Shown here: positions 4,340 to 60,673 of the stretch, in pieces | Layout of the letters: every line of letters starts with the position of its first letter | Position numbering within the stretch: position 1 is the stretch's first letter | Source: Mobula hypostoma | Lineage: Eukaryota | Assembly: GCF_963921235.1 (NCBI RefSeq) | Contig: NC_086107.1 | Span: 96,040,001 to 96,104,000, forward strand | Direction: 5' to 3' | Length of the DNA: 64,000 bases | Position numbers and translations under genes: made by a program | Notes under the pieces: model-generated | The model's database searches: none | Told to the model about the DNA's origin: nothing | What the model saw: the letters and a program-made list of their open reading frames with translations, nothing else

Positions 4340-5218
4340 TGTTACGTACCCCGTAACTGGGTTGCCAAACCAGCAGAAATGGATCACTCAGTTGGAGTCT
4401 GGAGTACTAGAACTAAGAAAGTTTTATTAAAGAAACAAGCAACACAGTAATCGAAAGGATAATAAATGCAACAATTCAACAATGATAACCACACATGTGC
4501 ACAGAATTAAGATAACAGCATCAATCAAGCTCTATCGTTGTCTAGGGGTTAAATGACCAATTTCAAAATGACTCAAAGTTCAGTCCAGTTTGTAGTTCAG
4601 TTCGCAGTAATCGTTGCCATGGCGATGGACAAGGTGGGGGAAGAGAGAGATAGAATAGGAACAACTCATCATTCAGAACGGCTTCACTCACAGACCAGCA
4701 AGATGGCTCACAGACCAGCGAGATGGCTCACAACCAGCTTTTGGGCGGGTCCTTGGTGATGTCACCTGAGGTCACCGACTGTGACCCCTCCTCCAGATGC
4801 GGTCGATCCTCTGCAGTGAACCCGGCACCCAGGCAAGGGCGGACACACACCGGGTTCCCGCTGATCGTACCTTTCCACCCTGTGCGTTGTCCGATACTTC
4901 TCACCACTCGTGAGAGGCGCACCGCTTCCAGGGTCTCGTTACCTCGGGTGGCGTGTGTGTCTGTCTTAGCGAACCTGTCCCTTTTTATCCCCCTGCTGGG
5001 GTATCGCCTGTCCATCACTTCAAACAGTTCAGGGCTCAAAGGGGGGAGCCGCTCCAGACAGCTCTTCCTCCCACATCCCTTCATTACACATCTCCAGACG
5101 CTGCTCCATTGTTCCTTATCTCTCCTTCCCCTGAGGGCAGGTGGCAGACCAACTGCTGATGCCACTGATGCTAGCCCAGGCCAGCAAACATCTTAATTTT
5201 ATGTGTATTCTCATAACA
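4340..5218 (-). repeat. 3' LTR of the Gmr1-like element
   Basis: Direct repeat of 8256-9134; contains a 20-bp internal tandem duplication cagaccagc(a/g)agatggctca. Confidence 0.95.
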
Positions 5219-5390
5219 CTTCCCCCCTTTAAGGATTTTTACCGGGAGGTAAAAATTACAAACATGACTACATTATCTGATACATACACAATATACATCT
5301 TTAACAGTTATTTAGCTAATACAGAGAATTTGAAGCTGTCAATACCTTGACAGACAGTCATCACATTTTCTGTTCCTTTTACACGTGTTA

Positions 5391-8156
5391 TTAATAATCC
5401 CTTAGACCAGGCTCCAACTCAGCAAACTTCATAGTGGCCAAAAACACTGATGAATTGCGACCAATGTAACCTCTCATTTGGTTTTGTCCCGGACCACAAC
5501 AACAAGGGTCGTCCCATTCCGACTCAATTTTCCCTCGCAAGGGCTTAGTAGGAGGGGGACGGGTATTGACCGCAGAGTTATTGCAAAACTTCCTGCAGTA
5601 CCCCACCATCTCCAAAAGCCTTCTGAGGGCCCTCTTGTATGTCGGGGTTGGGAGGTCAGCGATAGCCTGCACTGTAGCTTGCATCACTGCCAGCTGCCCC
5701 TGTGTCACCACAATTCCCAGGTAAGTGACATTCGTGTGGCCGAATTCATTTTTTCCAAGGTTCACTATCAAGCTGGCTTCAGACAGCCGTGTTAAATTGC
5801 CAATACACACCTCTGTGTTCATCAGCCCTTTAGTCACTGAATTACTCAAAAAATATGGGTGTTGTTTACTTGGCCGCCCTATTGTAACCACAATCACCCA
5901 ACGTCCCAGTTCTTTGCATTTCCTCGGGACAATCAAACACATGGGTGCGAGTCGTTTAATTACTCCTTCGGGGATTAAGGGAGAGACCTTATCAGTAGAC
6001 CTGGCCAAAACAATAGCCTTCTCCCATCTGACCGATCCCATCCTAATCTTTTCAAAATGGTTTTTTCCTCTTATCAAGGGGCCCCTAGCTTCATTGATTT
6101 CCACGCTAACACCGACTAGGTTTGTTAGCATATCAAAAGCCGGTGACCGTCTCAGTTCGCGTCGGTCATGATCAATAACATTTTTCCCCCTGGGCAGCCG
6201 GTAACTCTCTTTCATGATTCCACCAACTGTTTCCTCCAGCACCGCAAAATGTCCACCGGGGGGTACCTCGTGGGCCATGTTAAAAACCTCATCCCCATAA
6301 CTCTTTTGCACCACCCCCCACTCCTCATCTGCGGATGCTGTACTTGATTTCCCTTTCTTCCTTAGCACCTCCTCATCCGCACAATAGCTTGTCAAGGCTG
6401 TGTCAGAGAGAGCTGTCTCGGCCAAAACCATCAGCCCCTCGTCTCGCTCCTGCGTCTGCACAAATTCTTTCCTGGCTACTGCTACGTCCGTCCCAGCTCC
6501 CTCACTACCTCTTATCTCACTACACCCTGTCTCATACAAGGTTGGCAGAAATGTTTCAGCCAAATTCACCATCGCGGGCGGGGCCTCCATGCTGGCAGGC
6601 TGACCCGTCAATCTCACGACTGGGAACACGATTCCTCCGGCGATGTCATTACCGAGCAAGACTTCCACGTCTTTCATCGGTAATTCGGACCTCACCCCGA
6701 TCGTGACTAGTCCAGAGACCAGGTTGCTCTGTAAATGTATCTGGTGCAAAGGGACTGACTCTGTCCCTTCCCCAACACCTTTGACCTCTACCTCCCCAAT
6801 CTGGGTCTCTGAGCTAAACTCTAATACACTCTTCAGTATTAGTGACTGACACGCTCCCGTGTCTCTCCAGATCCGCACTGGAACTGGTTTTAACCTCTCC
6901 TTCACTGACACCAGTCCGGCCGAGATAAACCTCTCGCGCCCTTCCTGGACTTTTTCAGACCTGTCCTTCCCTAGCGGTTCGCTTAACAGCTCAATACAGC
7001 CATTCAAAATTTCCGCTTTTCCTTTCCCCGTCTCCTTCCTTGGGGCAAAGCACCTGGACGCAAAGTGTCCGACTTTCCCACAATTATAACAGACGACCCC
7101 AGGAGACTTCCCACCAGACTGCTCCCGGTCTACCTTATCCTTTTCACTAGTCCCCGGCTTACTTTCTGACTTTTCCGGTGGACTCTCCCCGCCGTCCTGA
7201 CTACCCTTCTGGTAGCCTTTACTCGGGGCAACCTTCATTTTATGCGTCAACGCATACTCATCCGCTAACTTAGCAGTTGCGGCTAACGTGGCTGCCTCTT
7301 TCTCATCGAGGTAGGGTCTCATACCCTCAGGGACACAACCTTTAAACTGCTCAATCAGAACCAGTTGCAGCAGTCTGTCATAATCCCCCTCTACCCCTTT
7401 CGAGGCGCACCAACGCTCACAATATGTTTGCATCTCGCGAGCAAACTCCAAATACGTGCGGTCCCACCGCTTCCTCGCATTCCGGAACCTCTGCCGGTAT
7501 GCCTCCGGGACCAACTCATAAGTCCTGAGGATGGCCTCCTTCACCACCTCATACTTCTGGGCATCTTCCGCGGATAAAGCGGAGTAAGCTTGTTGGGCTT
7601 TCCCTTTCAGTACACTCTGAAGTAAGACAACCCACTTATCCCTCGGCCAGTCCTGACTTATAGCTACTTTTTCGAAGTGGAGAAAGTACCGATCCACATC
7701 GGTATCGTCAAATGGGGGAACCAGCCTAACCTCCTGGGTCGCCCGGAACCCTCCACCTTGGTTCGGCACGAGCCCCTGCTCGGCCCTTATCTTTAACTTC
7801 TCCAGCTCAAATTCCCTTTCCCTCTGTTTCTCTTCTCTCTCCATCTGTCTGTCCCTCTCTTTCTCTTCGTGTTCTAACTGCCGTACCCGGAACTCGTGCT
7901 CGAGTCTCAGTTTTTCAAGCTGTACCTGTACCGCGTCTCCAGCAGGTTTTTCAATAGACACCTCCCCCAGCTCACCTTGGGGAAACACACCTTTAGATAC
8001 ATAGTGCTCTACAATAGCTCTGTGTATCTCCTCTCTCCTCATTGTCGACTTCACCTTAGCAAGATTCACCCGTTTTGCCACAGCTATCAATTCCGATTTC
8101 CTGGCATCCTCTAATGCCTCCAAGGTCGGCGCCTTTATAAATTCCTCAACCTCCAT
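5391..8156 (-). CDS. 921-aa Gag (SCAN-like capsid, CCHC knuckle)-protease polyprotein with vestigial IN, RT and RNase H segments
   Basis: Uninterrupted ORF. Motifs: EQFKGCVP..LADEY, CYNCGKVGHFASRC, WRDTGACQS, AHEVPPGGH (IN zinc finger start), VTYLGIVV..VGYCRKF (RT C-terminal part), YIGRNSSVFLATMK (RNase H remnant). No YxDD or DDE core. Confidence 0.9.
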   Translation of the reverse strand: MEVEEFIKAPTLEALEDARKSELIAVAKRVNLAKVKSTMRREEIHRAIVEHYVSKGVFPQGELGEVSIEKPAGDAVQVQLEKLRLEHEFRVRQLEHEEKERDRQMEREEKQREREFELEKLKIRAEQGLVPNQGGGFRATQEVRLVPPFDDTDVDRYFLHFEKVAISQDWPRDKWVVLLQSVLKGKAQQAYSALSAEDAQKYEVVKEAILRTYELVPEAYRQRFRNARKRWDRTYLEFAREMQTYCERWCASKGVEGDYDRLLQLVLIEQFKGCVPEGMRPYLDEKEAATLAATAKLADEYALTHKMKVAPSKGYQKGSQDGGESPPEKSESKPGTSEKDKVDREQSGGKSPGVVCYNCGKVGHFASRCFAPRKETGKGKAEILNGCIELLSEPLGKDRSEKVQEGRERFISAGLVSVKERLKPVPVRIWRDTGACQSLILKSVLEFSSETQIGEVEVKGVGEGTESVPLHQIHLQSNLVSGLVTIGVRSELPMKDVEVLLGNDIAGGIVFPVVRLTGQPASMEAPPAMVNLAETFLPTLYETGCSEIRGSEGAGTDVAVARKEFVQTQERDEGLMVLAETALSDTALTSYCADEEVLRKKGKSSTASADEEWGVVQKSYGDEVFNMAHEVPPGGHFAVLEETVGGIMKESYRLPRGKNVIDHDRRELRRSPAFDMLTNLVGVSVEINEARGPLIRGKNHFEKIRMGSVRWEKAIVLARSTDKVSPLIPEGVIKRLAPMCLIVPRKCKELGRWVIVVTIGRPSKQHPYFLSNSVTKGLMNTEVCIGNLTRLSEASLIVNLGKNEFGHTNVTYLGIVVTQGQLAVMQATVQAIADLPTPTYKRALRRLLEMVGYCRKFCNNSAVNTRPPPTKPLRGKIESEWDDPCCCGPGQNQMRGYIGRNSSVFLATMKFAELEPGLRDY

Positions 8157-8255
8157 TTCTGCTGTTTGTCTTTTCTTTCTTTCGGGAATTTTAACCCAAT
8201 CAATTTACTCCGTCCCAAATTTAGCGTTCAAAATCGCGGACGAGAACCCCACTTA

Positions 8256-9134
8256 TGTTACGTACCCCGTAACTGGGTTGCCAAACCAGCAGAAATGGAT
8301 CACTCAGTTGGAGTCTGGAGTACTAGAACTAAGAAAGTTTTATTAAAGAAACAAGCAACACAGTAATCGAAAGGATAATAAATGCAACAATTCAACAATG
8401 ATAACCACACATGTGCACAGAATTAAGATAACAGCATCAATCAAGCTCTATCGTTGTCTAGGGGTTAAATGACCAATTTCAAAATGACTCAAAGTTCAGT
8501 CCAGTTTGTAGTTCAGTTCGCAGTAATCGTTGCCATGGCGATGGACAAGGTGGGGGAAGAGAGAGATAGAATAGGAACAACTCATCATTCAGAACGGCTT
8601 CACTCACAGACCAGCAAGATGGCTCACAGACCAGCGAGATGGCTCACAACCAGCTTTTGGGCGGGTCCTTGGTGATGTCACCTGAGGTCACCGACTGTGA
8701 CCCCTCCTCCAGATGCGGTCGATCCTCTGCAGTGAACCCGGCACCCAGGCAAGGGCGGACACACACCGGGTTCCCGCTGATCGTACCTTTCCACCCTGTG
8801 CGTTGTCCGATACTTCTCACCACTCGTGAGAGGCGCACCGCTTCCAGGGTCTCGTTACCTCGGGTGGCGTGTGTGTCTGTCTTAGCGAACCTGTCCCTTT
8901 TTATCCCCCTGCTGGGGTATCGCCTGTCCATCACTTCAAACAGTTCAGGGCTCAAAGGGGGGAGCCGCTCCAGACAGCTCTTCCTCCCACATCCCTTCAT
9001 TACACATCTCCAGACGCTGCTCCATTGTTCCTTATCTCTCCTTCCCCTGAGGGCAGGTGGCAGACCAACTGCTGATGCCACTGATGCTAGCCCAGGCCAG
9101 CAAACATCTTAATTTTATGTGTATTCTCGTAACA
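8256..9134 (-). repeat. 5' LTR of the Gmr1-like element
   Basis: Direct repeat of 4340-5218, followed on the minus strand by PBS tggggttctcgtccgcgat. Confidence 0.95.
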
Positions 9135-9186: not shown

Positions 9187-9224
9187 CCCACCTCTTTCCA
9201 CAGATGTTGCAGCATATTGACTAT

Positions 9225-9818
9225 AAGGTCCCCAAGGTTGGCATTGCTGGGGGAGGTAGTGGTGATATACTCCCACTACCTATTAAATGCTCCTAGTGGC
9301 GTGCATCTCAAATAGCCTCTGATAACCAAAGTCCAGCTCCTGGGCTTCATGTGTGGCTGAGCCACTAAGCCCAGCAGAACCATTCCTACTGACAAGAGAA
9401 GGGGAAAAAGCATGTTACTGGCACCTTAAAACCAGTCCCTTCAGGCAGATGGGGCTTGTCAGCCATGGTTGGCAGCTTATCTAGGAGAAGGAAAATTCTG
9501 ATCTCAAACCTCCATTGCTTTGTGACTATACCCACTCATGGGGAAGGCTTTTGGGGTAAACCCCAAGGATAAATCTGGAGCTGGAACCCCTGAGGCAGCT
9601 CTACGTTGAGTTCAACGCTGACTGGCAACTCCTGCAACGCCACCAGTAACAAACTGAATCGGTCTCTGCCATTCCTTTGAATTAATCAGCTGCACCGAGA
9701 GGGGAAGCCTGCTGCATGGGCAACAGCTTGCTCTCCATATCGTACTGCCCTGACTTGCTTATCACATAGATAGCTAGGATGCAATGTCCTTGGTCACCCC
9801 CGACCAAAGGGGAGCTCA
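9225..9818 (+). mobile_element. Non-autonomous element with an RTE-type 5' UTR
   Basis: Contains ggcagcttatctaggagaaggaaaattctgatctcaaacc, a motif I recognise from RTE/BovB-like 5' UTRs. No ORF. Confidence 0.55.
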
Positions 9819-9819
9819 A

Positions 9820-10280
9820 ATTGACTGCAGCACACAGTATTTAAGGTCAATCCAACTGTTGTGATGAATGTCCTGTCTGATGAAAACAAGCAGGTCATAC
9901 AAGCTTCTCACCATCTTGTCTATCTGTCTCAGCACTTCCATGTAACTGTATACTTGTACACCTAGATTCTTCTCTTGGACAACACTTCCCAAAGCCCTAC
10001 CATTCATTGTGTATGCTGTGTTCTGGTTTAACTTCACTAAATATATCCCCTGATGCTGTTAAATTCTATCTGCCATTCCTTTGCCCAATTTTCCAATTTA
10101 TAAAGATCCAATTCTAATTGTAGACTTTTTTTTCACTGACACACCAATTATTTTGTTGTTGTCCACAAACTCACCAGTTTAGGCCACTTAGATTTGCATG
10201 CAAATTGTTAATATGGCAACTAGGAAACCCAGCACTGATCACAGGACTTCAATCGGATTAACAACCATCCTCCGTCTCTC
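9820..10280 (-). mobile_element. Old CR1 ORF2 (RT C-terminal) fragment
   Basis: YTMNGRALGSVVQEKNLGVQV..LKYCV matches the CR1 segment YKVNGRILGSVEEQRDLGVHV..LEYCVQ. Confidence 0.8.
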
Positions 10281-10349
10281 TCTAACTTCCAACCCTGAAC
10301 CCCATGTGAGCTCAGCTCATGAACCAGCCTTGCTCGCCATTGCTTGAGG

Positions 10350-13300
10350 CCTTTCCCCGTTAACCCTGCTCAGGGTCCGATGTCAATTTTGCTCTCTCCC
10401 CTCTCAGGTTCTCCTCAAATTTAGAGAGGTGACCCTCTCCTTGCCGGTAACAACGCGCACGGAGAGCAGTGCGGCACACGGACAAACTCTCCCTGAAACC
10501 AACGCCCTTCATTTCTCGGATCCGCAAGCCCGCGCGAAAAACAATCTGTAAAAGCCCAGATGTTCTGCACTGGCCGCCATCTTGGTTTGGAACCTGTTGA
10601 AGATGGTTCGGGTCGCCCGCCATGTGCAACACAAAGATGAGTTCTGAACGTTAGTGCCCGCGTGTGTGTCGGCAAGGGTTCGGGAGTGGGCGCTTTGGAA
10701 TCAAACAAGTACTGATTACAGCCTTTCTTGTGAAGCAGAAAGTATTTGAAGGGAAAGGAGGCGGCTCCATCGAAATTGTGCCGTCGGCCACCTAAATGCT
10801 CAAGCGGATTGTCCGCGGCGCTGAGGAAGAAGGCGGCTGTGGTCGGCGTGATGTTTGCTGGAGGGAAACCGAGCTGAACGTGAACCACGGCGACCTGGCA
10901 ATTGTGGACGTCGCTGCCAAACGACCCAGACCGGGTAGGGCTCAGTGTTACAAGGTGCTGGTGTTGGAGGAAGGGAAGTGCGGAGGTTCTAGCTAAGGAT
11001 GTAAATGTAGTGGTGTCTTTCTATATAGGGGAGGTGAGAGTCGTAATTAAAGTTTATTCGATCACCAGTTGGAGAGAAGGAAAAGAAAGGGCAGCGTTTA
11101 TATAAAATTCAGAGGATGGTGGGAATGGAACTGAGAGACGGTTTAAAGGGAGGGAAGACGTTGTACTCACACCTTTACGTGTTGGACAATAATTCCTTGT
11201 TCAGAATTAATAAGCACGATTCGGCATTTGCAGGGAATGCACTTGTCAATACCCGGTATTGTTTGAATTCAGTTCATATGAGTTGCAGAGGAAATGTCTA
11301 ATTGCTCAATTAAGATCCTTGGGACAGAAATAGATGTAAAGCTCGTTAAGATAACACTTTCTGAAAAGCATAAGACATTACGATATTATTTGAGGGAATT
11401 TCGTGGGTATTATCCTCGTTCCCTTGCTCCACTTTCCAATTTCGTAATCCGCCTCATGTTCTGTCAGTCGCCATTAAACTTTGCAAGAAAAGCTTTAATA
11501 CGTTTGAGTGAGAGGCCTTGGAAAATAATTATCTGAAGAAAATCTTTGGAAATTTATTTTCGGCTGGATATGGGGCATGCTTTGCTCTGCTGATGTGTGG
11601 ACATCTGAGACGGTGGAGAAGGGCGGGGTTCCGCCCTAGCCGAATCCTGAATGTGTTACTGAGGAGGGCTTTGGGGCTGGACTGGGATGTGTAGGTGAAA
11701 GTAATCTTCACAATGCTCCCTTCGCAAGATGCATCTCAGTCCAAGTTTATGGCTGAGGGAGAGTGAACCTGACGGAGGGGAAGGACGAGGCCGGGTAGGC
11801 AGAGTTTCCCTATCTGTATGGCTCAGCGCTCATTTTTCTAGCTGGTCAGTAAAGTCTCCCCTGCCATGTCGGAGGGTCACAGCGCTGCAAAGATTCTTTC
11901 AGGCACTGACTCGAGTCTGGAAATATCAGTCCAAGGACAGGAGAGGGCAAGAATTGCGCCGTCTGTTTGCAGTTCCCGTGTCCTGCTGTGGTGCGTTGCT
12001 CCTGCAAAGTTCCCGAAATTCGGGTGATTTGAGTTCTTAGGAAGGAGAAAGGGATTTCCAATCGATAGATTTTTGTAAAAAGCAACAATGGGTTTGTGCT
12101 TTCCCAGATAGAGAGTCAGTTGCAGCCGTTCACGTCTGTTTTAAAAAAAAAATTTCTGTGCGATTATAATTGAGTGGTTTTGCTGGATTTTAAAGATTTA
12201 AGCCACGAACTTGGTTTCCACAGGTTGTCAGATTGCCACCTTAATTTGTTTTGTTCAGTCTGTGCTTCTCTCTGAGTTTTCAAACATAGCAACTGAATAG
12301 CTGCCTCGGTGGCTTTGCTCTCTGTCTGATTCCTATTCTGCATTAGCTGCAGAAGTGAGAATGTCGCAGAAATCTGTGCCTAGCGAGAAGTTGTAGGACA
12401 GCAGTGGGGATTCATCACAGTAAGTAGTCCAGGGCTGGGTACGGTAGCTTTTGGATTTTCTTTTTTGTCAATCTGAAACTGACCCCACTCCTCACCAACC
12501 TGCCCCCATCTAAACTAAAACTTTTACCCAAGGGTTAGGATCAGGGGTGTGGGACCTGTTTGTTTCTGTATTGAGATTATGTCTGCGTGGGATTGAGATC
12601 ATTTGCTCCGGACAGTGCGTTTAGTTGCTCTATAAAGTCTCCCTCGCTTTATTGGAGGGTTACACCTCTGCAAAGATTCTTTCGGACAGAGAGCTCATCA
12701 AAGGAAAGGAGAGGGGCAGGAATTGCGTGGTCTTGTTTGCAGTTTCTGTGTCCTGCAGAGCTGGTATCTCTTTAGCTTGCATTTAAGATGAAGGCAGGAA
12801 ATTACCAAATTCCCAAAATTGGATAGAAGTGAAATCTTGGGAGAGAGGAAAGACTTTCCCAATCTCCATATTGGTAAAAGACAGCAATGGGCGTGTTTGC
12901 CCGCTTCTCCGGCTGAATGCGGAGATACAGCCGTGCACCCCTCTATTCGTTCTCCGTGTGAATATTGTTCTTTGGCTGCGCTGGCTGGCCTGGATTTTAA
13001 AGATTCGCGCCGTGTCTGCGCAGGTTCTCGCACTTTTTTAACAGTTCACATTGTGCTCATTTTTTAACAACGGCCTGTTGCTCCTCCGCTCGCTGCTGAG
13101 CTGACGGTGGGTACGGAGTGGGTGCAGAACTATGGGGCATTGCAGTGTGATCTGTGACACGGATTACGGTGCAGGGCGCAACCCGTTTCAGATCCCGGGC
13201 ACCGGGTTTTGTGCAGCGCGGGAGGTGCTTGTAATCCTAATGCATTGTAAGTCTGTATTTGCCCACCGTGTATTGAATCGTTTCCGTGAAATAATTAACC

Positions 13301-13750
13301 TTAGGAACCAATGGACCTTCTGGGGTCTTGTCTCTGGTGAAATTATCCTTGGCCAAGGTGGAGACCTGACCGACTCTCCTTTTTTTTGGTAACGAGGAGC
13401 AGAGAGATGTGTGCACAATCGGCCCTTCGGCCCACTGTGTTTGCGCCGCTCATGATTTAACTTGTACATCCACGTTTGATGCGAAGCCCCCGAACTCCCT
13501 CATGGCTGCGACCTGGCGCAGATGGCAGAGAGCAGGCACTGACTTTGGTTGAGCTCAGATGGGACAATTGGGCCCAAGGCACGTTATTGGGTGGAAGGCC
13601 TGGGGCTGCGGGTGGCGACGGCTGCGAAGGAACAGTGCGTGCAGCTTGGGGCTTGGAAGGGGGAAAAGGCGAGCGGTGATAGTCTGGTTGGTTCTTTTAA
13701 AATGTTTTTGTCTCTCTGTCTACAAAGAGTCATTATTTTCGGCCGAGACC
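10350..13750 (+). promoter_or_regulatory. CpG-rich, TE-free region; candidate CpG-island promoter or first exon of a non-coding transcript
   Basis: Many CpGs retained relative to its paralogous copies. YY1-like GCCGCCATCTTG at 10573-10584 and a donor-like GT at 10935. No recognisable protein. Strand is inferred. Confidence 0.45.
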
Positions 13751-16380
13751 CTTTATCTAGTTCCTGTGCTCAATGTTCAACTAACCCTTGTTATGCAATG
13801 TGTGCAGAGATGAAGGGCATTGCAGATGAATTTGTGGTGCGGACTGACAGCGCAGGATGCAGGCAGGGAGGGAGCTGACTTTGGATTCCTGGGCACCAGG
13901 GTTGGTTCTCCAGTGCATGAGCAGGGACCATTGTGATTTTTGAATTGGCACCCAGTTGCTTTGCAGATCTGTATTTGCATGCCATCCATTGGGTCATTTC
14001 AGCCCTGCACAGGGACTGAAATGCCTTAAATGGCAGCAGCTTTCATTTAGCATTCCTGCCTCCACTTTCAGGCAGTTAAAATTGCCTTCCTCTAATTTGG
14101 AGAGCTTCCTCTCTTCCCCCTGGTAACAATGAGCACAGGGTGCAGTCTTTCATATGAGCAAGCTCTTACTAAGCCTATGCAAAAAAAAAACCTGCATGAC
14201 TTACTGGGGAAACAATTTATAAAAGCCCTGATTTGCCAGATTTTCAGCACGTGCTATTTAATTTTTACTTTTCACCATCTTGGTTTGCAACCTGTTAAAG
14301 ATGGTTTGGTTTTGGTAGACAAAGATTTGGGTTACCCACAATAGGCAACACAAAGATTAGTTTTGAACTTTAGTGCCTGTGCATGTGTTGTCAGGGGTTT
14401 GGGAGTGGGCGCTGTGGAATAAACCTGGTGTTGATCACAGCCTTTCTTGTGAAACAGGAAATGTTTAAAAGGACAGGATGCAGCTGCGTCAAATTGTGCT
14501 GTCAGAGAAATCATCGAAGTCCCAATTTGTGGCGCTCTGGAAGAAGGCAGCTCTCGTTGCAGTGATGTCTGCGGGCAATCCGAAGAGAAACCGAGTGGCA
14601 CCTGAACCACAAAGATGTGGAAATCTGGACATTGGTGCAAATGTATGACGCTGGCCAGGTACGTCTAAGTGTAACACATTGTTGGCTTGGAAGGAATGAG
14701 GTGACGGACATTCTAGCCAAGCAATCACTTAAAATTGAAGATTTTTCTGAAATGGTGCCTTTGTATAATGGGGAGGTGAAAGTCATAATTTAAAAACTCC
14801 ATCACTCTGGTACTGAAGTTTGGAGAAGGAAAAGAACTTTCCAACTGATCCGTACAATACTACAGCCTGGTGACGACATTCTTTGCCATCATAATGCCGC
14901 CAACATCCACATCATCTCATTGTACCTGCTGTGTCCATTAATCACTGGACATTAATCACAGATGTGCAATCAATCAGCAGAACATCCTTTCACTAGTACC
15001 GTCTGCGCCCGTACCTCCCTCTCCCCCCCCGCCCACAACTTCACCATGTCAATTTTGGACCTTGTTGACCATCATATAACCGCACTGACTTGTGTAACTC
15101 TTTAGTCGAACTCTTTGTAAACTCGGCCCCAGCCCAGCAGTTGGGGCCTGTGTGACCACTGGGCACAAGGCTCGATAGTGGGTGGAAGGACTGCGGTGCT
15201 GGTGGTGGAGAGGGTTGCGAGGGAACCATGGGGCTTGGAAGGGAAGGAGAAAAGCGAGCATATTGCTTTGCTGTCTGGTTGGAGCTCTTCTGCCACAATT
15301 GGCAACACAAAGATGACTTTGAATGTTAGTGCCTGCGTGTGTGTGACAGTGGTTTGGGAGTGGGTGATGTGGAATTAATATAGTATTGATTACAGCCTTT
15401 CTTGTGAAGCAGGAAACATTTGAATGGCAAGGAGGCAGCTCTGTAGAAGTTGTACCATCGTTCATCTAAATCCTCAAAGTCACATTTGGTGGTGCTGTGG
15501 AAGAAGGTGGCTGTCATCGGGGTGACGTTTGCTGGAGGGAAACTGAGCTGCACGTGAACCACGATGATCTGTCAATTCTGGACATCGCTGTGAACATACG
15601 ACGTTTGAGTGAGTGGTCTTAGAAAATGATTATCTGGTGCTGCATTTGATGAAAACCTTTGGAAAATTATTTTATGGCTGGAGATGTGGGAGATGCACTG
15701 CTGATGGGTATTGGGATGTCTGATACTCCAGAAGAACGGCAGGGTTGTGTCATTGCCGTTGCCTGAATGTATACTGAGGTGGGGCTTTGGGGCGGGGGGG
15801 GGTGTTCAAGGTGCAAAATGTCATCATCATGCAGCCATGCAGATGCATCACAATCCAGGTTTATGGCAGAGGGAGGTGAGGAGTAGGCAGCAGCTACCTG
15901 ACGCCAGGGGTACCTCTGCTCACTGCTGAGCTGACATGGGTTATGTAGTGGGTGCAGAAATAGGGTGGTCTTGCAGACAAATCTGTGGCGTGGCTTGACG
16001 GTGTGACAGGCTGGCTTCAATTCCCTGGGCACTTGGCCCTGTTCTGCAGTGCAGGAACAGGGACCCTCACAATTTGGTGGCTGCACTCTTTTGTTTTGTA
16101 GGTTTTTGCATTTGCCCACCTTTTCCTGAACCGTTTCCGTGAATGCATTCCGTTTGCCCTGCTCAGTGACCAGGGTACCTTCAAATTGCAGATTTTATTG
16201 AGTTGTTGTCTCAGAAGTTGGTGAAATTACCCTTCCTGAACAGATCTCCCCTCCCTTGTAATGAGGAGCAGAGAGCAGTCAAGCACTGGAATGGCCTTTC
16301 AGCCTACTGTCTTTCTGCTGACCACAATATTGATTGAAACTTGCACATCAGTGCCTGCTCGTGGCCTGTACCCTCAATTG
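10570..16380 (+). repeat. Mosaic of diverged direct duplications (modules A x3, B x2, C x2, D x3, E x2)
   Basis: Approximate module positions. A: 10573-11090, 14273-14835, 15303-15595. B: 11497-11770, 15597-15880. C: 11830-12260, 12615-13050. D: 13080-13470, 13765-13985, 15912-16370. E: 13565-13695, 15157-15285. Shared anchors include cagcctttcttgtgaa, ctgcaaagattcttt and gggtggaagg. Confidence 0.85.
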
Positions 16381-16429
16381 CCCGCTGGTTTCACATGCTC
16401 TGTCACAGTCTCCTCCCTGTCACCTCAAT

Positions 16430-16960
16430 ATCCTCTTGTTTTTATTGGTGAGATTGGAGGGCCATTAAATACCAGGATAGCAGAACACAAGAGTGCTTTG
16501 AAAAAACTTGAGAGCAGAATGAAGCGGGATTGCTGAACTCTTCCTATCATGCTCATGTAGACCAAGGTTTGATGAGGCCAACGACCTTGGCAAGGAAGAA
16601 AATTCCTATACGAGAAAGATTAAGGAATCACTAAAGATGGAGCATGTGGGGGACCTAAATATAGGTTCAAAGAGTGTAGGGATAGCACCAGCCTGGGTAC
16701 CGCACATTCCTAAAAAGGATTTGGCCAGAAAGATTGACCGATTCAAACTAACCAATCAAGAATAGGCAGTTCAGATCCAGCCAATCAGGATCAAGTATTA
16801 AGCCCCACCCATGCCCTGTTCACTTGAGAGGGCATATAAGGTAGTGTCTTCAGGGAGATTTGTCACTTGATGAACTTATGCCTGAGGAAGATGGTTGGGT
16901 TTACCGTTGAAGTGCTGCAATCAGATCTCTAAGTATGTGACTATTAAAGGCCAAAGGATA
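16430..16960 (+). mobile_element. Second-family Penelope-like fragment (GIY-YIG) with CCAAT/TATA boxes and a hammerhead relic at about 16881-16915
   Basis: FIGEIGGPLNTRIAEHK (YIGETGR..RxxEH motif) and RKIKES. ccaatc twice, then gcatataagg, then CTGAGGA-aGATGGT..ACCGTT-GAAg. Confidence 0.7.
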
Positions 16961-17911
16961 GTATGGATAGTGTTGTGACTCAACAAAAGCCACTGGAGAG
17001 GCACGTAACTGGTAGCATAAAAGTCTATTTGGCACACACAAGCTGATAACATTTGGAGTGGCTCTGGAGAGAGGTTCCCTGACCCAGCATTACATCACAT
17101 GTTTGCTAAAGATCAAAGGTTACAGCAGGATGATTGCTATAGTTACAATGCATTCATAATGCTTCCTTTGAGGTGCATATAATTTTCAGACACCTAGATC
17201 TTCACATGAGCATTCTCAAAATGAATGCTAATCACCATCATCTCTGAGCTGCATTCATACATGTGCAGACATCTCAGGTCATTGGAGTGTTTCCTGGTTT
17301 GCAATCAATCGCAGTCTGCAGCTCCAAGACCATTGTTATGAGCTGCATTTTAAATTTAATTTACAATCCACATTCAGATCTGAAGACTTGTTGGAATTAC
17401 TAATTTGCTATATTCAATAACCTCAGAATACACTCTAACATTTCCTCTTCTTGGCCCTCCTGGACAAAAATAATTTGTTCCGACAAAGGCCAATCAAATA
17501 GGGCAACTGTCATGGAAATACGAACAAAGAACTTAATATTCTGTTTATTTGAATTCCCGGTGCTGCACTTATCATTGAAGTTATTCTCAACTTGCATCTG
17601 CATTCTTAAGTCCAGCAGCTCCTGAGTGGTCACATATCCCATCATACATTAGTTTTAACTTTCTTTTCCAATCTTTTTATTAATATCAAAATGTTAAACA
17701 TAACATAGTATTAGTTCAAAGCTATTAGGATTACATTGTTAATAATTAGCATATATAAGTATAAACTCAGTTAACACACAGATATTAAACCTCCCAAAAC
17801 CTTACAGAATATGAATATAAGGAAAAAATGCAGAAGTAGCATGAAATAAGAAAAGAAAAAAAAATACTGTTTAATACTGAAAAGAAAATTAATCTAAACA
17901 ATACTAATCAA

Positions 17912-20900
17912 CTTTTTTATTTCAAAATGTACTTTATTCAAAAATAAAATTATATACTAATTATATTCAATGACTTAATCCTTTACATACGTTTCCCTTA
18001 TGGTATCTAGATATCCATACGTTGGCCACCCACGTGGCAATCCATTGGTTCACCTTCCCACAACATTGTTAAGGGGTATACTCCCTGCCACCCGACCCCT
18101 CCCACTCCCACGGGTGGAGAAACCTATACTGTGGTCCTTGCCCACCGGGCCCTTGCGGTGGTTGCACCAAGTTTCAGTGCGTCCCTCAGCACGTACTCCT
18201 GCAGCCGAGAATGTGCCAGTCGGCAGCATTCTCCCACAGACATCTCCATGTGCTGGTAGATCATCAAGTTTCGGGCCGACCAAAGAGCGTCTTTCACCGA
18301 GTTGATGATCTGCCAGCAGCACCGGATGTTGGTCTCCATGTGCGTCCCCGGGAACAGCCCGTAGATCAGAGAGTCCTCTGTTACGCAGCTGCTGGGGATG
18401 AAACATGACACTAGCCCGTCCATCCTCCTCCACACCCTCTCTGCGAACTGGCAGTGTGCAAAGAGGTGTGTCACAGACTCCTCCTCACTGCAGTCCTCCC
18501 GTGGGCAGTGGGGTGTAGAGGCAATGTTCTGGGTGTACAGGAGGGATCTGACTGGGAGGGCCCCTCTCACCGCCAGCCAGGCGAGGTCTTGGTGCCTGTT
18601 GGTGAGATCTGGCGATGAGGCATTTTGCCAGATGAACTGGACAGTCTGCTCAGGGAACCACCCCACTGTGTCCATCACGTCTTTCTTTCCTTCTTTCTTT
18701 TTAAATCTTTTTATTGAATTAGTACACAAAGAGCAACCAATACATTGTTAGGATATAAATGTAAAAGTAATATTAATACAAAAAAAATACAAACAACGTA
18801 TGTTAATTATAGAATAACAAGGTAATATAATTGTATACTAATTTTCATATATACCTAATAGAACGAACCCCCCACCCGCCAAAAAAAACCTACCGTGCAA
18901 CTAACCTAAGAAAGCAAAGTATTGGGCTAACTAGGTATATACTAGACTTTGAACAGTTAAACAATCGCGTCCTCAAACCCGAGCTCTGCTAATAACAGAT
19001 AAAATCCACAAATGGAGTGTAAATATGGTCAGAGAGAAAAAAATAGTTACATTAAATGAAAATATTGAATAAATGATCTCCAGGTCTGTTCAAATTTAAC
19101 TGAAGTATCATAAAGATTACTTCTGATTTTTTCCAAATTTAAACACAGTATCGTTTGAGAGAACCAAAAAAATGTAGTTGGGGCATTAATCTCCTTCCAA
19201 TGTTGTAGAATACATCTTTTCGCCATTAAAGTAAGAAATGCAATCATTCTACGAGCTGAGGGGGGTAAATTACTGGAAGTTTTAGCTAATCCAAAGCTAG
19301 CAGTAATAGGATGGGAAGAAATATCACTATTCAAAACCTTTGAGATAATATTAAAAATATCTTTCCAGAAAGTTTCCAGAGTTGGACAAGACCAAAACAT
19401 GTGGGTCAAGGAAGCTATCTCCCCATGACATCTATCGCAAAGAGGGTTAATATGAGAGTAGTAGCGAGCTAATTTATCTTTAGACATATGTGCTCTATGG
19501 ACAACTTTAAATTGAATTAAAGAGTGTTTGGGACAGATAGAGGAAGTATTAACAAGTTGTAAAATATAGGCCCAGTCCTCAGCCGGGATAGTAAGACCCA
19601 ATTCCCTTTCCCAGTCAGTCCTAATCTTGTCGAATGGAGCTTTCCTAAATTTCATGATAATATTATAAATAGTAGCCGTTACACCTTCCTGAAACGGGTT
19701 AAGGTTAATGATAGCGTCTAAACTATTTGTGGGGGGTAACGCTGGAAAGGAAGAGTATGGTATTTAGGAAATTTCTTACTTGCAAATATCTTAAAAAAAA
19801 ATGTGTTCTTGCTAAATTGTATTTATTAGATAACTGTTCAAAAGACATAAGGGAGCCATCTGAAAATAAGTCAGAAAACCGTGATATACTATTAGTCTTC
19901 CAAATTTGAAAGGCACAGTCTGTAGCGGAGGGGAGGAAAAAATATATTGCCTATAAATATATTAAATATAGGAATCGCTAGCACAAGTTCATTAAGATCA
20001 AAAAATTTTCAGAATTGAAACCAGATACGTAAGGTACATTTAACTATCAGGTTGCAAACCTGCTTATACCGTTTCAAATCGGAAGGATCCTAATGTAGAG
20101 CCAAGTGCATAGCCTTGAACAGATTGTAATTCCAATACTACCCATTTAGGAATGGACAGTGTATCTTGGTCAAGTAACCAAAATTTCGTGTGTCGAATAT
20201 TAATTACCCAATAATAAAATCTAAAGTTAGGTAATGCCAAGCCTTCATCTCTCTTAGCTTTCTGTAGATGTATTTTACCCAACCTTGGGTTTTTATTTTG
20301 CCAAATAAATGAAGAGATTTTAGAGTCTACTTTATCAAAAAATAGATTTTGGAACAAAAATTGGTAATGCCTGAAATATATATAAAAATTTTGGCAGAAT
20401 GAACATCTTAACAGCATTAATATGACCAGTCAAAGTTAAAGTGGAGACCATTTAAAGGAAAGTTGTGTGATATGGTCAATTAAGGGTAAATAATTAGCCT
20501 TAAATAAATCCTTATGTTTACAGGTAATTTTAATCCCAAGATATGAAAAATGATTATTAACCAATCTAAATGGCAGGTTCTGATATAAGGGAACTTGCTT
20601 ATTAATAGGGAAAAGTTCACTCTTATTAAGATTTAATTTGTATCCTGAAAAAAGACTAAATTGGGCTAATAAATCTAGAGCTGCTGGGATAGATTTTTGA
20701 GGATTGGAAATATGTAAGAGTAAGTCATCAGCGTAAAGTGATATTTTATGAGACTTTAACCCACGAGTTGTACTAACAATGTTAGGCAATTCTTGAATAG
20801 CAATTGCTGGTGATTCTAATGCTATATCAAATAATAAAGGGCTAAGAGGACACCTTTGTCTGGTACTTTGAAATAGAGGGAAAAAAAGGTGAGTTTTGAG

Positions 20901-36820: not shown

Positions 36821-38256
36821 CAGGTGTCCCCTGCTTTTCGAACATTCGCTTTATGAAACCTCACTGTTACGAAAGACCTACATTAGTTACCTGTTTTCGC
36901 TAACAGAAGGTGTTTTCACTGTTACGAAAAAAGGCAGCGCGCACCCCAAGCAGCCGCTCCTTCCCCCGGATTCGGAACTGCATTCTAGCCGGCATTGCTT
37001 AAACATGTGCCTGTGAGCATCCATTAGCAAGATGAGTTCTAAGGTATCGGAAAAGCCTAAAAGAGCTCGTAAGGGTGTTACTCTTAGCGTCAAACTAGGC
37101 ATAATTAAGCGTTTCGATTGTGGTGAATGAAGTAAGGACAAAGTGAGTTTGGCTTTGGAAGTTGACGAAGATGATGTTGAAGAGGTTTTGGCAACCCATG
37201 ACCAAGAACTGATAGATGAAGAGCTGATGAAATTAGAAGAGGAAAGGATAACAATCGCAACCGAATGCAGTAGCAAAAGGACCGAAAGTGAAGTCATCCA
37301 GGAACTGAACGTGAAGCAACTGCATGAGATGTTTGCTGCAATGATTGCAGAAAAGTACGACTTTAATTTTGAAAGGGTACGTAGGTTTAGGGCATATTTG
37401 CAGGATGATTTGAGTGCTTACAAAGAACTGTACGATAGAAAAATGCGCGACGCTCAGCAGTCAAGCAAGCCTTCCACATCAGCCACAGCAGACAACGAAC
37501 CTTGACCTTCGACATTGAGGCAGGCAGACATAGGAGAAGATAACCTGCCTGCCCTAATGGAAATAGATGACAATGAGATGACACCCCAGTGTCCCACCAC
37601 CCCAGCCCCCAGGCCGTGGACACCTAATTAATTAGCTTGTTTATTTCGGCTTTTCTCTTAAAGATGTGCTGGGTACATTCCGACTACCACTGTATCACTG
37701 CATTCTCCACGGATCGGTATCAGTTTGCTGCCCAGAGGTTGGGGACCACTGCACCATCCCAACTTCCGACGACTTAGCCTAACACACCATCATCAGTGTG
37801 CTCGGCGCTGTCTTCCGGATTCCAGTAAGTGATACTACACTGTACATACATTATTTCTACTTTATATATGCGTTATTTGATATGATTTGGCAGCTTCATA
37901 GCTTAAAAGTTACTGGAGAGAGTGTTTCTGCCGAGAGCGCTTGTACCATGTTTTTGCCAACAGCGCTTGTGTGAGATTTTCTCTACGGAGAACAGTGCAG
38001 GCAATGATTGTAGAGAAGTATTTCTACTTTATATAGGCCGTGTATTTATCATACCATTCCTGCTTTTACTATGTTACTGTTATTTTAGGTTTTATGTGTT
38101 ATTTGGCATGATTTTGTAGGTTATTTTTTGGGTCTGGGAACGCTCAAAAATTTTTCCCATATTAATAAATGGTAATTGCTTTTTCGCTTTACGACATTCC
38201 GGCTTACGAACCGTTTCATAGGAATGCTCTACATTTGGATGGCGGGGGAAAACCTG
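36821..38256 (+). mobile_element. Tigger/pogo-derived internally deleted DNA transposon
   Basis: TA-flanked termini caggtgtcccc..ggggaaaacctg. N-terminal psq-HTH remnant RKGVTLSVKLGIIKRFDCGE fused to an acidic C-terminus DVEEVLATHDQEL; DDE domain absent. Confidence 0.88.
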
Positions 38257-39873
38257 TATGTAAGAGCCCTGGAGTTAGCTGCCCAGCAGTAATGTTGAAA
38301 ATTGGCAGACCAAGACTGCCCTTCTTTAGAGGTTTGTGCAGGTGAGCCTTAGCTATCCTGTGTGATTTGTAGCCCCACACAAAGGGCAACATGATAGAGT
38401 CAAGTTTCTTAAAAAAGGATGCATTTAAGTATATAGGCAGGTTTTGAAAAAGATATAGAAATCTGGGTAGGCTCACCATTTTAATCGCATTTACCCGTCC
38501 AAGCATGGATAAGGGCAGTATCCTCCAGGACTCGATATTTGTTCTGAGTTTTTCTAATGATTCTATGAAGTTAAATTTGAAAAGGTGCTTTGGGTTCTTA
38601 GTCAGTTTAATCCCCAAGTAGGTGAAACAGTCCTTCTCTACTCTAAAAGGCAACTTTTTCAGGAAGTCTTCAGTAAATTGATCCACTAAGGGCATGAATT
38701 TGCTCTTTCCCCAGTTTATGGTATAGCCAGAAATACTCCCGAAGGAATTTATATATTCTAGTAGGATGGGAATAGAGATCGCTGGGTCGGCTAGACAGAC
38801 AAGGAGGTCGTCCACATACAAAGTCACATGGGTCTCAATATTGCCCAACTTAATACCTTTAATGTGTGTATGGCCCCTAATGCCAGTTGCCAGGGGCTCC
38901 AGCACTATGTTAAACAGCAGGGGGGACAATGGGTCCCCTTGGCGAACACCACATTGCAGAGAGAATGGGTTGGATTTATCCCCATTTGTGAGAATGAAGG
39001 ATTTTGGATTAGTATATAATATTTTGAACCATTCTATAAAAGTGTTGCCGAATCCAAACTCCTTGAATGTTGCAATTAGATAGGGCCACTCTATCATATC
39101 GAATGCCTTGTGGGCATCTAGAGACAGTATAGCAGCTCTATCATCTTTCCCATAATCGGCATACAAAATATTGAGAATTTTGCGGACATTACAGAAGGAG
39201 TACCTGCCCGGGATGAATCCCATTTGGTCCGGGTGAATGATATTTGCTATTTGCTTACTGAGCCAATTTGCTAACACTTTTGTAATTATTTTCAGATCAT
39301 AATTTAGTAGTGCAATGGGTCTATAGCTTCCAGGGTCCATTTTGTCTTTATTTTTTTTAATAAAACACAGATATTTGCTTCACTGAGAGAGGGTGGGAGC
39401 CTCAGTTTACAAAGGTATCCCGAACCATTCTCAGCAAAGTCGGTGTAAGGACATCTGGGAAGGCTTTGTAGAACTCTGGCCAAACCCACCCGGTCCAGCG
39501 GCCTTACCGGTGGGAAATGCTTTGATGGCATCCTGTAACTCAGATAGCGAAAAATCCAAATCCAAATTCTCCCTGAAAGCTGCATCTAATTGTGGGAAGT
39601 GAAGCAGATCAAAAAACTTATCAAAATCTTCCTGTGTAGCTGTTGATTTGGAGGTGTAAATTTCTAAATAGAGCTCACTAAATCGTTTGTTAATATCCTT
39701 TAAGTCTGTAAGCATCAGGCCAGATTTGGATTTTATTTTGTAAATGGCTCGTTTTGCTTGTTCTCCTTTTAACTGCCTTACCAATAACTTCTGTGGTTTG
39801 TCACCAAACTCAAAATGTTGCTGTTTAAGTTTAAGTAGTAGGTTACCAATTTGTTCCCCTAGAATGGAGTTGT

Positions 39874-40655
39874 TGTGGCGGCTCGCCCACTCAGCAAGTG
39901 AACCGGCTCCAGCAGTCGCCGGTGAACCCACAGCCAGCGGCAACCGAGAGGAATCTGAGTGTGGGGTGGACCTCGGCCCAGAGGCTGATGTCGCTTCCGC
40001 CCCACAAAGAGCGGGGGTTGCTGGGAGCGGGTACTTAAGCGCGCGCCGATTCAAGCAGTAAACGGTTCAACCCGACCCTGCTCGAGGCAGTGTGTTGTTT
40101 TCACTCGTAGCCTATCAGTGTGACTACATTGGTGACCCCGACGGTCCAACGGCACTTGGACCCAACATGAACGACTCGGCTCTGCAGAATGCAGTTTCCC
40201 TTAAACTGCCAACCTTCTGGACCACCCAACCCCTGGTCTGGTTTGAGCAAGCGGAGGCCCAGTTCCAGGTCAGGCAAATTGTGTCAGACGCCACCAGGTA
40301 TTACTACGTGGTGGGCGCCCTCGGCCAGGAGACAGTGAGTCACGTTATCGACTTCCTGCGTCAGCCCCAGGCAACAGACAGGTACGAGGCATATTTGGCC
40401 TCTCCCGCCATGAACGGGCCGCGTGGTTACTGCATATGGACGGCCTGGGCAACCGCGCACCATCAGCCCTGATGAATGACATGCTAGCACTGGCAGACGG
40501 CCATAAGCCTTGCCTGCTGTTTGAACAGATCTTCTTGGAGCAAATGCCAGAGGATATCCGCCTCCTGCTAGCAGATGAAGACTTTAAGACCTGCATGGGG
40601 TGGCTGCCCGCGTGGACGTGCTTTGGTATGCCAAACAAATGGGCGGAACCACCAT
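39874..40655 (+). mobile_element. Truncated Gypsy element: 5' LTR 39874-40128, tRNA-Trp PBS, gag start
   Basis: tg..ca LTR, then tggtgaccccgacg. Gag SLKLPTFW..WFEQAEAQF is homologous to the gag at 54256-54957. Confidence 0.88.
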
Positions 40656-40659
40656 TGTA

Positions 40660-41730
40660 ATTAGTTGGAATGAGCAAAACACTATTGGAATGAGTAAAAC
40701 ATAAAACTCAGTATAATTAAATAGGAAATTATTATGTGTCAATGTAGGGGAATACATGTATATAAAAAATCACACAAAGCAAGCAGTATTACTAAAAATT
40801 AAATGAAATTAATTTTCATGGAATTCAATGACTGTGACATACCTGGAAAGGGTCGCATGAGATTGTTGTGTGGGGGGAACGCAGAATCACCAACGATGAT
40901 ATGCGGGATTTTGACTCCTGGTCCTGGAAGATTGGCTGGTGAGGGCAGGTTCAGTTTGTGTTCAAGCAACATAGAACTAAATCTGCTCTCCTTGAAGATA
41001 CCCCTGTCACTTCCCCATCCGTATCTCCCTAAGTCCACCATGGTAAACCGATATCTGGTGTTGCAGACAGCCATCAGGACAATGGAATGTGCGCCCTTGT
41101 AGTTGTAGTAGTCGCTCCCAGTGTGCGGCGGTGCCTTGATGTTCGTGTGTTTTCCGTCTATACTGCTGACACAGTTTGTAAAGTTCCATAGTCGCCAAAA
41201 ATCAGCTGCAGTAGCTTCCCATTGGGCGACTGAAGAGCAGAGAAGGAACTCTGGTTGCGATGCTTTCCATAAAGCTTTACACACCTCCGAAGTTATGGAG
41301 GACCCTGTGCTTTACGCCATTTTGTAGCTAGCTGCTACAGCCTGTTGACTTCCACCTGAAGCTAGAACTTGAAGGGTGATTGCCAGTCTCTGAGTAATGT
41401 CTAAAGGCATACTGTGTGTACACTGATACAAGATAAATGGTTGGAGACGATGAACCAAATCGTCAAATCTGCCTACCGACATCCGAAAATATTTGAAATG
41501 CATTTCCTCATCCATGTCTCTCAGTGACCGGACAAGCACAGCAAATTCACCCTCCTTCTGTCTCAATCCGTTCAATGGTCGTATACACCATCTCCTCCGA
41601 CGTCTTCTTTCTTTTCTGCGTTGCTGTAATTTCAATAAAAGTAACTCTTGTTTAATATTTATTAGCTTCAACTCCAACATGATGCGCTCAGTTTCCGTCA
41701 AAGGCGACTTTACTGATGGATAAAATGGAA
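40660..41730 (-). mobile_element. PIF/Harbinger transposase (HARBI1-like nuclease) fragment, frameshifted, ending at an apparent intron donor
   Basis: YFRMS..FD, RLAITL..LASG, IDGKH, YYNYKG..SIVLMAV, GDSAFP..LMRPFP; ccag|gtatgt donor at 40843/40842. Confidence 0.9.
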
Positions 41731-60395: not shown

Positions 60396-60673
60396 CATTA
60401 AAATTAATTTACATGTCTGTGGTGTGGGTGTGAAGAGGGAGGTGTAAAGATTGTGCTTAGGTCAAAGGAAGCATTGTGGATGCATTGTAAACAAGGAATT
60501 GTCCTTTGATGTTCAACAGATAAAATGTCATGTAGTATTGGGTCAAGCAAGCCTCTTCCTGCAAAAGGGTTTCAATATGATGCTGCAGTGTCTCCTTTTG
60601 TTGAAAAAAGAAACTACCTCATATCTGCCAGCTAAGTCTCTCCAGCGACTTTTGGGGCCTTGTCCAAGGATAC

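Follow-up and report, generated by a model that had tools for sequence, protein, structure and literature searches.

The question posed by this locus is what a cluster of diverged, duplicated non-coding segments represents within DNA that is otherwise filled with transposons. The window, the whole stretch of 64,000 nt of Mobula hypostoma DNA that was analysed, is transposon over at least 44 of its 64 kb, and the block is its longest stretch devoid of a recognisable transposon (6,291 nt, against 3,172 nt for the next, with intervals set by hand). An earlier note had described it as a shuffled mosaic and proposed a repeatedly duplicated promoter or first exon. With somewhat better than even confidence, we favor assigning the block to the 5' end, marked by CpG islands, of a plus-strand gene of the lncRNA type that is spliced and low-copy, has FIRRE-like local repeats and belongs to a small family of at least two loci.

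Layout, copy number and history of the block

Five blocks were found in 13 direct copies, all on the plus strand and together occupying 4.4 of 6 kb. From left to right these are D' (10330-10490, the 3' part of D, 71% identical to 13975-14166 with a score of 62 against a null maximum of 36), A1 (10539-11087; 77% to A2 and 80% to A3), B1 (11500-11766; 80% to B2), C1 (11839-12198; 73% to C2), C2 (12622-13005, placed by local alignment), D1 (13083-13470; 68% to D2), E1 (13560-13698; 81% to E2), D2 (13760-14166; 68% to D1 and D3, with a CpG o/e of only 0.08), A2 (14210-14836; 77% to A1), E2 (15151-15289; 81% to E1), A3 (15293-15602; 80% to A1), which runs straight into B2 (15601-15879; 80% to B1), and D3 (15910-16349; 68% to D2). 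Between A1 and B1 lies a spacer (10926-11499, no strand assigned) that holds the A1 donor and fragments of mid-copy repeats; comparison of the junction letters found it missing from the A3-B2 junction. Over aligned columns the copies were 68-81% identical (10 pairs), with K2P distances of 0.22-0.43 and BLASTN E-values from 1e-69 to 7e-4, and the main local alignments scored up to 342 where the shuffled maximum was 36. A candidate 14th copy at 12308-12401 was dropped, as its score of 36 compared with a null maximum of 37, and none of the 7 rows returned by Tandem Repeats Finder fell in the block.

The order A-B-C-C-D-E-D-A-E-A-B-D given in the earlier note for twelve diverged direct copies was thus confirmed by alignment, while its starting point of 10570 missed D' further left. 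With this 13th copy to the left of A1, the succession D-A occurs twice. Most of the order follows a D-A-B-C-D cycle, a pattern that points to an eroded tandem array instead of the shuffling that had been described; one clean unit accommodates neither block E nor the C-C pair. An ancestral D-A-B-C unit of about 2 kb may have expanded into a local tandem array well before this species and its sister diverged, and deletions would have eroded the array afterwards.

The impression of some 6 kb free of insertions held for recognisable transposons, and small repeat fragments are nevertheless present. The depth of DNA run X1 rose to 381 at 11006-11306 (44 in the rest of 11006-11607) and to 131 at 14618-14918, and D3 ends in a fragment at 16266-16323 that aligns, in antisense orientation, with the 3' tail of the CR1 present in the window (score 37, where 200 shuffles gave at most 31). 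A tblastn search of 22 window transposon proteins against the block gave no hit at E<1, and no Pfam family was detected in the block's 20 frames (of 186 window frames scanned), in agreement with the earlier reading of no transposon or protein signature.

Genome-wide copy number was judged by read depth at 85% likeness, a threshold below which copies are invisible. In the DNA runs of two species the depth was 5-25 in most bins of 10103-16423, and the repeat bins on either side (9200-9801 and 17026-18200) reached 1,855-71,992. Since this depth is low and nearly single-copy where the flanking transposons reach thousands, the block is not a high-copy repeat; depth, Rfam and Pfam gave no sign of the dispersed repeat or known family that had been named as a refutation of the proposal. 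A related A-B-D locus does exist elsewhere in the genomes of both species and was also seen in run X9. Its A-to-B joint, found in the DNA of both species and in X9, is about 90% identical to A1 and has the same 53-letter spacing as A3-B2, and its contig depth in X9 is similar to that of the block. The matches listed include at least one outside paralogue at 85% likeness or more. Some 570 unplaced letters lie between its B and D, and the depth at C2 steps by the equivalent of about 72 letters; by arithmetic alone, these suggest a C-like segment in the paralogue. Across six listed pieces the sister species differs by 1.5-4.4%, with the left half, rich in CpG, differing most. In this comparison, made without a neutral baseline, the sequence constraint that had been proposed was not apparent.

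A probable splice joint and the CpG-retaining copies

The major evidence for splicing comes from run X9, whose status as RNA is a guess, none of the listed runs with block sequence being recorded as RNA. The X9 evidence consists of assembled contigs, with 15 of 774 joints and 32 of 55,680 pieces listed. Contig 24 (depth 47) matches 10293-10932 with 8 differences and then jumps to 14457, with one letter between. Among the matches listed this joint occurred in X9 only, and its depth was 0 in the DNA runs X1 and X5. The joint is proposed to reflect removal of a 3,523-nt plus-strand intron at 10935-14457 (GT..AG), which would place a first exon of at least 642 nt at 10293-10934, with its donor GT at 10935. 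For this interpretation to hold, the allele must differ at position 10933, which is two letters away from the joint; the difference was not seen independently, and contig 24 carries 8 others in 640 nt. At its left end (10293) no AG acceptor was found, only a weak minus-strand donor (4/9).

The second exon, of 201 nt, is assigned to 14458-14658 inside A2, between a conserved acceptor and a strong donor (8/9 consensus letters). Contig 24 covers 14457-14659 and then departs from the genome sequence (3 unmatched letters), so that its genome match ends at this donor. Of the 25 nt preceding the acceptor, 23 are identical in all three A copies, compared to 65% block-wide (p 0.0015 for that window; p 0.12 as the best window anywhere), and the acceptor pattern had no match in metagenome contigs. 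The joint connects the end of the A1 exon with the beginning of its homologue in A2. Such a connection does not keep the register of the A1/A2 homology and is of a kind produced by splicing but not by unequal crossing-over. The same acceptor precedes 15413 in A3, where no donor follows, and from its sequence this site is a candidate start of a long later exon. Two further X9 contigs (records 27 and 29; depth 10-11) read unspliced through 16048-17698 (no strand assigned) with zero differences from the window, and this stretch is possibly the 3' part of the transcript. X10 and X11, which come from the study that also yielded X9, were nearly devoid of block words, and the block was hardly covered in X10; these runs have no bearing on tissue specificity. 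The claim of expression thus rests on one contig from one run of guessed RNA status.

CpG decay between the copies was strongly directional. CpG to TpG/CpA changes numbered 19 in A2 relative to A1, with 1 in reverse (p 4e-5), and 13 against 1 for A3. D1 likewise retains CpGs, at 12:1 against D3 and 10:1 against D2, and the o/e at 12800-13300 reaches 0.93-1.06; D1 is a second such copy beside A1, which the earlier note had taken to be the only one. The first CpG island, D' plus A1 (10300-11100, plus strand), is the probable promoter. Its o/e was 0.74-1.09 in 300-nt windows starting at 10300-11000, GC skew becomes positive at 10500-10600, and three YY1-core-like motifs occur in 10200-10940 against 0.29 expected. 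The second island, the end of C2 plus D1 (12800-13470, plus strand; o/e 0.78-1.06 in windows starting at 12800-13200), is a possible second promoter or enhancer. Young transposons in the window also had a CpG o/e of 0.7-0.9, and high CpG alone is not special.

Directional decay and the putative-RNA contig joining A1 to A2 at GT-AG support a promoter and first-exon region with parts putatively unmethylated in the germline, D1 being a second CpG-retaining copy. The notion of a repeatedly duplicated first exon was modified, as the repeat in A2 has both an acceptor and a donor and would be an internal exon. We hypothesized that the left copy, with its kept CpGs, serves as promoter and first exon for RNA polymerase II, that A2 retained its acceptor and donor, and that the majority of the remaining copies ended up as methylated intron or as 3' exon sequence. 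Survival of both splice sites in A2 implies that the RNA would carry the same segment of about 200 nt twice.

Coding potential and RNA structure

No evidence of coding was obtained. Of 99 indels between copies, only 28 have a length divisible by 3, and p<=0.05 was reached in just 2 of the 36 frame tests. These data uphold the earlier statement that no reading frame is conserved, and they led to rejection of tandemly duplicated protein-coding exons, for which a preference for frame-preserving indels and a synonymous excess would be expected. The longest ATG-started ORF of the joined 843 nt has 56 codons, and the second exon has stops in all three frames or short ORFs only. Minus-strand frames of 199, 110 and 81 codons in A1, A2 and A3, respectively, showed no synonymous excess. 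When compared with 1.84 billion proteins, the 199-codon frame gave a single hit (P0001, E 7e-8), which was rejected as summed noise, this protein being a tandem-repeat singleton whose best local match covers 9 of 31 residues. Two short plus-strand frames had no homologue among longer proteins, which is weak evidence.

Rfam gave 0 hits at the gathering score across the window and one chance hit outside the block (E 2.9). A folding scan with 12 shuffles placed 8 of 246 windows at z<-3. The 13950-14050 segment of D2 folds well (z -4.1) and its counterparts in D1 and D3 do not (+1.1 and -1.1), the folds of B1 and B2 (z -2.7 and -2.2) differ, and the A-copy consensus yielded no favourable covariation term. 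The Rfam and structure checks proposed earlier therefore ended with neither an Rfam family nor a conserved fold in the modules. A snoRNA or miRNA host was rejected, as the B1 and D2 hairpins and the C/D box pairs were not common to sister copies and no Rfam hit was obtained.

Alternative explanations and comparison with known loci

The same features could in principle mark where a one-strand piRNA precursor of the flamenco or pachytene type begins, the block acting as its promoter and spliced head and the paralogue heading a sister cluster. Plus-strand RNA would then run through tens of kilobases of antisense transposons and be cut into silencing small RNAs. This is unlikely. Window-wide, 16 of 20 orientable retroelements are antisense to the spliced strand (p 0.012; hand tally), and no coding exon was recognised in the 47 kb downstream. 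Published work reports 71-79% antisense transposons for flamenco, with a duplicate that has only the promoter region in common (PMC10495008), and most cytoplasmic piRNA pathway genes together with Piwil4 in the elephant shark (PMC7618676). However, the downstream bias alone is 12 of 16 (p 0.077), and all four upstream elements have the same orientation, so the bias does not begin at the block's probable promoter. Such bias is also ordinary inside genes, according to another report (PMC3517506). MYB-type motifs were not enriched (1 against 1.33 expected in 10200-10940; A-MYB motifs, 10 against 11.0 in 10200-16400). It is equally doubtful that D-A-B-C is a reusable promoter-and-splice cassette which, having been copied within the block and to a second place in the genome, stands at the head of a small family of one-strand piRNA precursors in rays, ahead of antisense transposons stacked over a very long distance.

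It is rather improbable that the exons form the 5' untranslated leader of a protein-coding gene with its coding exons beyond the window, or an alternative start inside such a gene, with the paralogue leading another family member. The exon after 14658 could belong to such a gene, as contig 24 departs from the genome at a strong donor toward an unseen exon; the window-wide antisense bias fits a long intron, and its upstream part would be compatible with a host gene whose start is further to the left. Against this, the leader already seen is 843 nt with 12 ATG-started frames, poor for translation. The six frames of the window hold no C2H2 zinc-finger motif, its only non-transposon Pfam match is a below-cutoff RPW8 hit on an L1 ORF1, and the X9 contigs at 16048-17698 are unspliced. 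Very improbable is a functionless relic, that is, an old satellite-like or mobile-element-derived tandem duplication with CpGs kept by chance and noise transcription, or, as a variant, a joint due to DNA rearrangement or assembly artefact. This explanation is consistent with the unapparent between-species constraint (again without a neutral baseline), the repeat fragments inside the block, the joint seen in one run only, and the fact that copies below 85% identity elsewhere would escape detection. It accounts poorly for a joint bounded by GT and AG whose acceptor has survived in each of the three A copies, for two CpG-retaining islands, for the longest insertion-poor stretch in so transposon-rich a window, and for a paralogue in the same run at similar contig depth.

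The favored assignment, a stand-alone lncRNA gene, is of a known kind, since local-repeat architecture has precedent in some mammalian lncRNAs; the locus itself looks unannotated. The repeats of Xist and NORAD lie within exons, and the unit of the block differs in taking in splice sites together with promoter-like DNA and in giving rise to separate exons. The likeness lies in a non-coding RNA built from locally duplicated units (PMC6316617, PMC5828396). The FIRRE locus has an exonic repeat, RRD, and intronic repeats R0-R11 (Hacisuleyman et al. 2016, PMC4820808). As in FIRRE, several units recur within the locus and rarely elsewhere (here at least one paralogue at 85% likeness or more), one unit overlaps exons and others are intronic (here from a single contig of putative RNA), and the copies are about 70-80% alike and non-coding by the exons seen. 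Unlike FIRRE, the block packs 13 copies into 6 kb at the 5' end and has a probable promoter that is itself duplicated material, only two exonic copies seen, and a paralogous locus. The likeness is one of architecture, and no sequence homology or orthology is claimed.

With flamenco (Signor et al. 2023, PMC10495008), the locus would share a transposon-poor head followed by a mostly antisense stack (75% here, compared to the range above in three Drosophila species) and a duplicate sharing the head region. It differs from flamenco in its mixed LINE and LTR content, which is not Ty3-dominated, in having the same antisense bias upstream, and in its probable vertebrate CpG-island promoter. The literature searched, which covered few subscription papers, contained nothing on the block or on such loci in cartilaginous fishes, and no mapped piRNA cluster or cluster promoter from them. 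Should the doubtful piRNA-precursor head prove true, it would be the first piRNA-cluster promoter to be mapped in these fishes, whose genes for the pathway are already known, and would offer a defined promoter and splice junction for testing transposon defence. As an lncRNA gene, the block would have its value as a clean natural record, from a lineage distant from mammals, in which CpG decay and the retention of splice sites show how local duplication turned one segment into promoter, internal exon and methylated remnants.

Architecture, copy number and age of the duplicated blocks

The earlier note had described a mosaic of five modules at 10570-16380, all direct and in the order A-B-C-C-D-E-D-A-E-A-B-D, and this was borne out by self-alignment at 68-81% identity. 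Reverse-strand scores exceeded the null maximum of 36 in a few cases (38-44), all located on local hairpins. Absent from that description was a partial D copy, D' (10330-10490, plus strand), found directly upstream of A1 (10539-11087); because it adjoins A1, 10330-11087 is collinear with 13975-14836. The 13 significant copies cover approximately 4.4 of the 6.0 kb, the non-significant D-like D0 (12308-12401) being left out of both figures. Neighbouring blocks follow a cycle of D-A (twice), A-B, B-C and C-D, with the A-B junction direct in A3-B2 (15293-15879) and containing a 574-nt spacer in A1-B1. From these cyclic adjacencies, we infer tandem amplification of a unit of approximately 2 kb, eroded afterwards by deletions. 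Extra events are needed for block E and the C1-C2 pair.

The stretch was present wholly or partly in 9 of 14 sequencing runs, from three studies and two organisms. Four runs, all in the form of contigs, were aligned to 9200-18200 at 85% likeness, and the results rest on the 15 of 774 joints and 32 of 55,680 pieces listed. In the DNA runs from the same species (X1, which may be the source of the window) and a second, sister species (X5), depth was 5-25 in most bins of 10103-16423, the exceptions (11006-11607 and 14618-14918) both containing repeat fragments; the flanking repeats, by contrast, had a depth of 1,855-71,992 (bins 9200-9801 and 17026-18200). At this likeness, the block is low-copy. 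Six X5 pieces among those listed track the block with 1.5-4.4% differences, which are far exceeded by the K2P distances between block copies (0.22-0.43), and the duplications were therefore deduced to be much older than the species split.

Probable spliced contig, paralogue and coding potential

The locus is real, probably transcribed and spliced, and non-coding as far as seen. In X9, a run presumed to be RNA, a contig of 850 nt (depth 47) spans 10293-10932, one extra letter and then 14457-14659, connecting the end of the A1 segment with the beginning of its A2 homologue. This joint had a depth of 0 in X1 and X5. Since a GT begins at 10935 and an AG ends at 14457 in the window, the contig was deduced to represent two exons joined by splicing, the first with its end at 10934 and the second with its start at 14458; the intron would be 3,523 nt, a reading that needs one allelic difference at 10933. 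Unequal crossing-over is argued against because the joint is out of register with the duplication. The acceptor region was identical at 23 of 25 positions across all three A copies versus 65% overall (p 0.0015 as a fixed window, 0.12 as the best window anywhere), and the A2 donor, where the contig departs from the genome, matches 8 of 9 consensus letters. The left end of the contig at 10293 may be a start site, a weak minus-strand donor or an allelic acceptor. Two further X9 contigs match 16048-17698 without differences. The spliced contig and the second species have at least three listed differences in common (10417, 14612 and 14617) that are absent from the same-species DNA run, which suggests either a divergent allele or a problem with the species label.

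A second X9 joint, from 10916 to 15643 with 53 letters between (depth 39.9), was also present in the DNA of both species (4.9 and 2.6) and was thus assigned to a separate place in the genome, where A and B are fused in the manner of A3-B2. This paralogue is approximately 90% identical to A1 and continues across D as far as the counterpart of window position 16436. Its X9 contig starts with 27 letters that differ from the window sequence immediately left of 10740. An unspliced copy would be expected to match the conserved acceptor at that point, and the mismatch suggests that the same acceptor is used in the paralogue. The spliced contig and the paralogue alone account for the X9 bin depths at 10103-11005 and 14317-14617.

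The claim that no reading frame is conserved between copies was upheld, as 28 of 99 indels were multiples of three; synonymous excess at p≤0.05 occurred in 2 of 36 frame tests, which is the chance level. The joined 843 nt contain 12 ATG-started frames, the longest of 56 codons. Pfam matches among the 186 window frames scanned were accounted for by transposon-type frames, with no family matched in the block's frames, and the Rfam search gave nothing inside the block. Together with the low DNA depth at 85% likeness, this means that neither a high-copy dispersed repeat nor a known family was found. Homologue searches with two block frames were both empty; one protein homologue match of a block frame was rejected as an artefact. 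Folding of the copies revealed no stable hairpins common to sister copies. A stable hairpin set was observed in D2 only, at 13950-14050 (z -4.1, 0 of 200 shuffles), and was missing from D1 and D3.

CpG retention and the proposed promoter

In comparisons of CpG decay to TpG/CpA, A1 retained 19 sites versus 1 in the reverse direction against A2 and 13 versus 1 against A3, while loss between A2 and A3 was symmetric (6:6). The proposal that A1 keeps CpGs lost from later A copies was thus sustained, but not A1 as the sole retaining copy: D1 behaved likewise (12:1 against D3, 10:1 against D2), and D' retained 6:0 against D2. This directional loss defines two CpG-retaining islands, at approximately 10300-11100 (A1 and D') and 12800-13470 (D1 with the end of C2). 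Low germline methylation, the standard explanation of CpG retention, would account for both. YY1-core-like motifs were enriched near A1 (3 observed versus 0.29 expected); a motif scan for MYB, near A1 and across the block, gave no enrichment over expectation. Two of the YY1-core-like motifs face each other at 10573-10606, where the GC skew flips. These features, with the end of the X9 contig at the weak minus-strand donor (10293), make a divergent transcript from this region possible.

The likeliest mechanism is a promoter within the D'-A1 CpG island, driving a plus-strand Pol II transcript that would splice onto the surviving exon in A2 and continue past it, with A3-B2-D3 as a possible path. 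Among described architectures, the nearest is that of FIRRE, in which local repeats recur inside one locus and one repeat forms exons (PMC4820808); the likeness is of design, and no homology is claimed. Neither this locus nor comparable loci in cartilaginous fishes were described in the literature searched.

Transposon surroundings

The block could instead be a promoter-and-splice cassette heading a one-strand piRNA precursor, a reading we consider improbable. Retroelements were antisense to the spliced strand in 16 of 20 orientable cases (p 0.012), with 12 of 16 downstream of the block (p 0.077) and 4 of 4 upstream; the tally covers only retroelements supported by protein or homology evidence. 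This bias would be expected both within an intron of a long gene (PMC3517506) and in a one-strand piRNA cluster (PMC10495008).

Minus-strand retroelements dominate on both sides of the block, including all seven L1/Tx1-like ones. Transposon-marked intervals occupy at least 44 of the 64 kb, their frames being presumably CR1-, L1/Tx1-, Gypsy-, Tc1-, Harbinger- and Tigger-like. An L1-like element at 38219-44291 is apparently split by nested Gypsy, Harbinger-like and Tigger-like pieces. In a very high-copy element at 9200-9800 (DNA depth 50,000-72,000), the scanned frames gave no protein signature. The window also has a Gypsy-type LTR element, young and carrying a SCAN domain and a zinc knuckle, in two copies (4340-9134 and 60673-64000), which are 98% identical, 52 kb apart and on the same strand. 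The left copy, whose LTRs are 99.9% identical, lies upstream of the first CpG island at a distance of approximately 1.2 kb.
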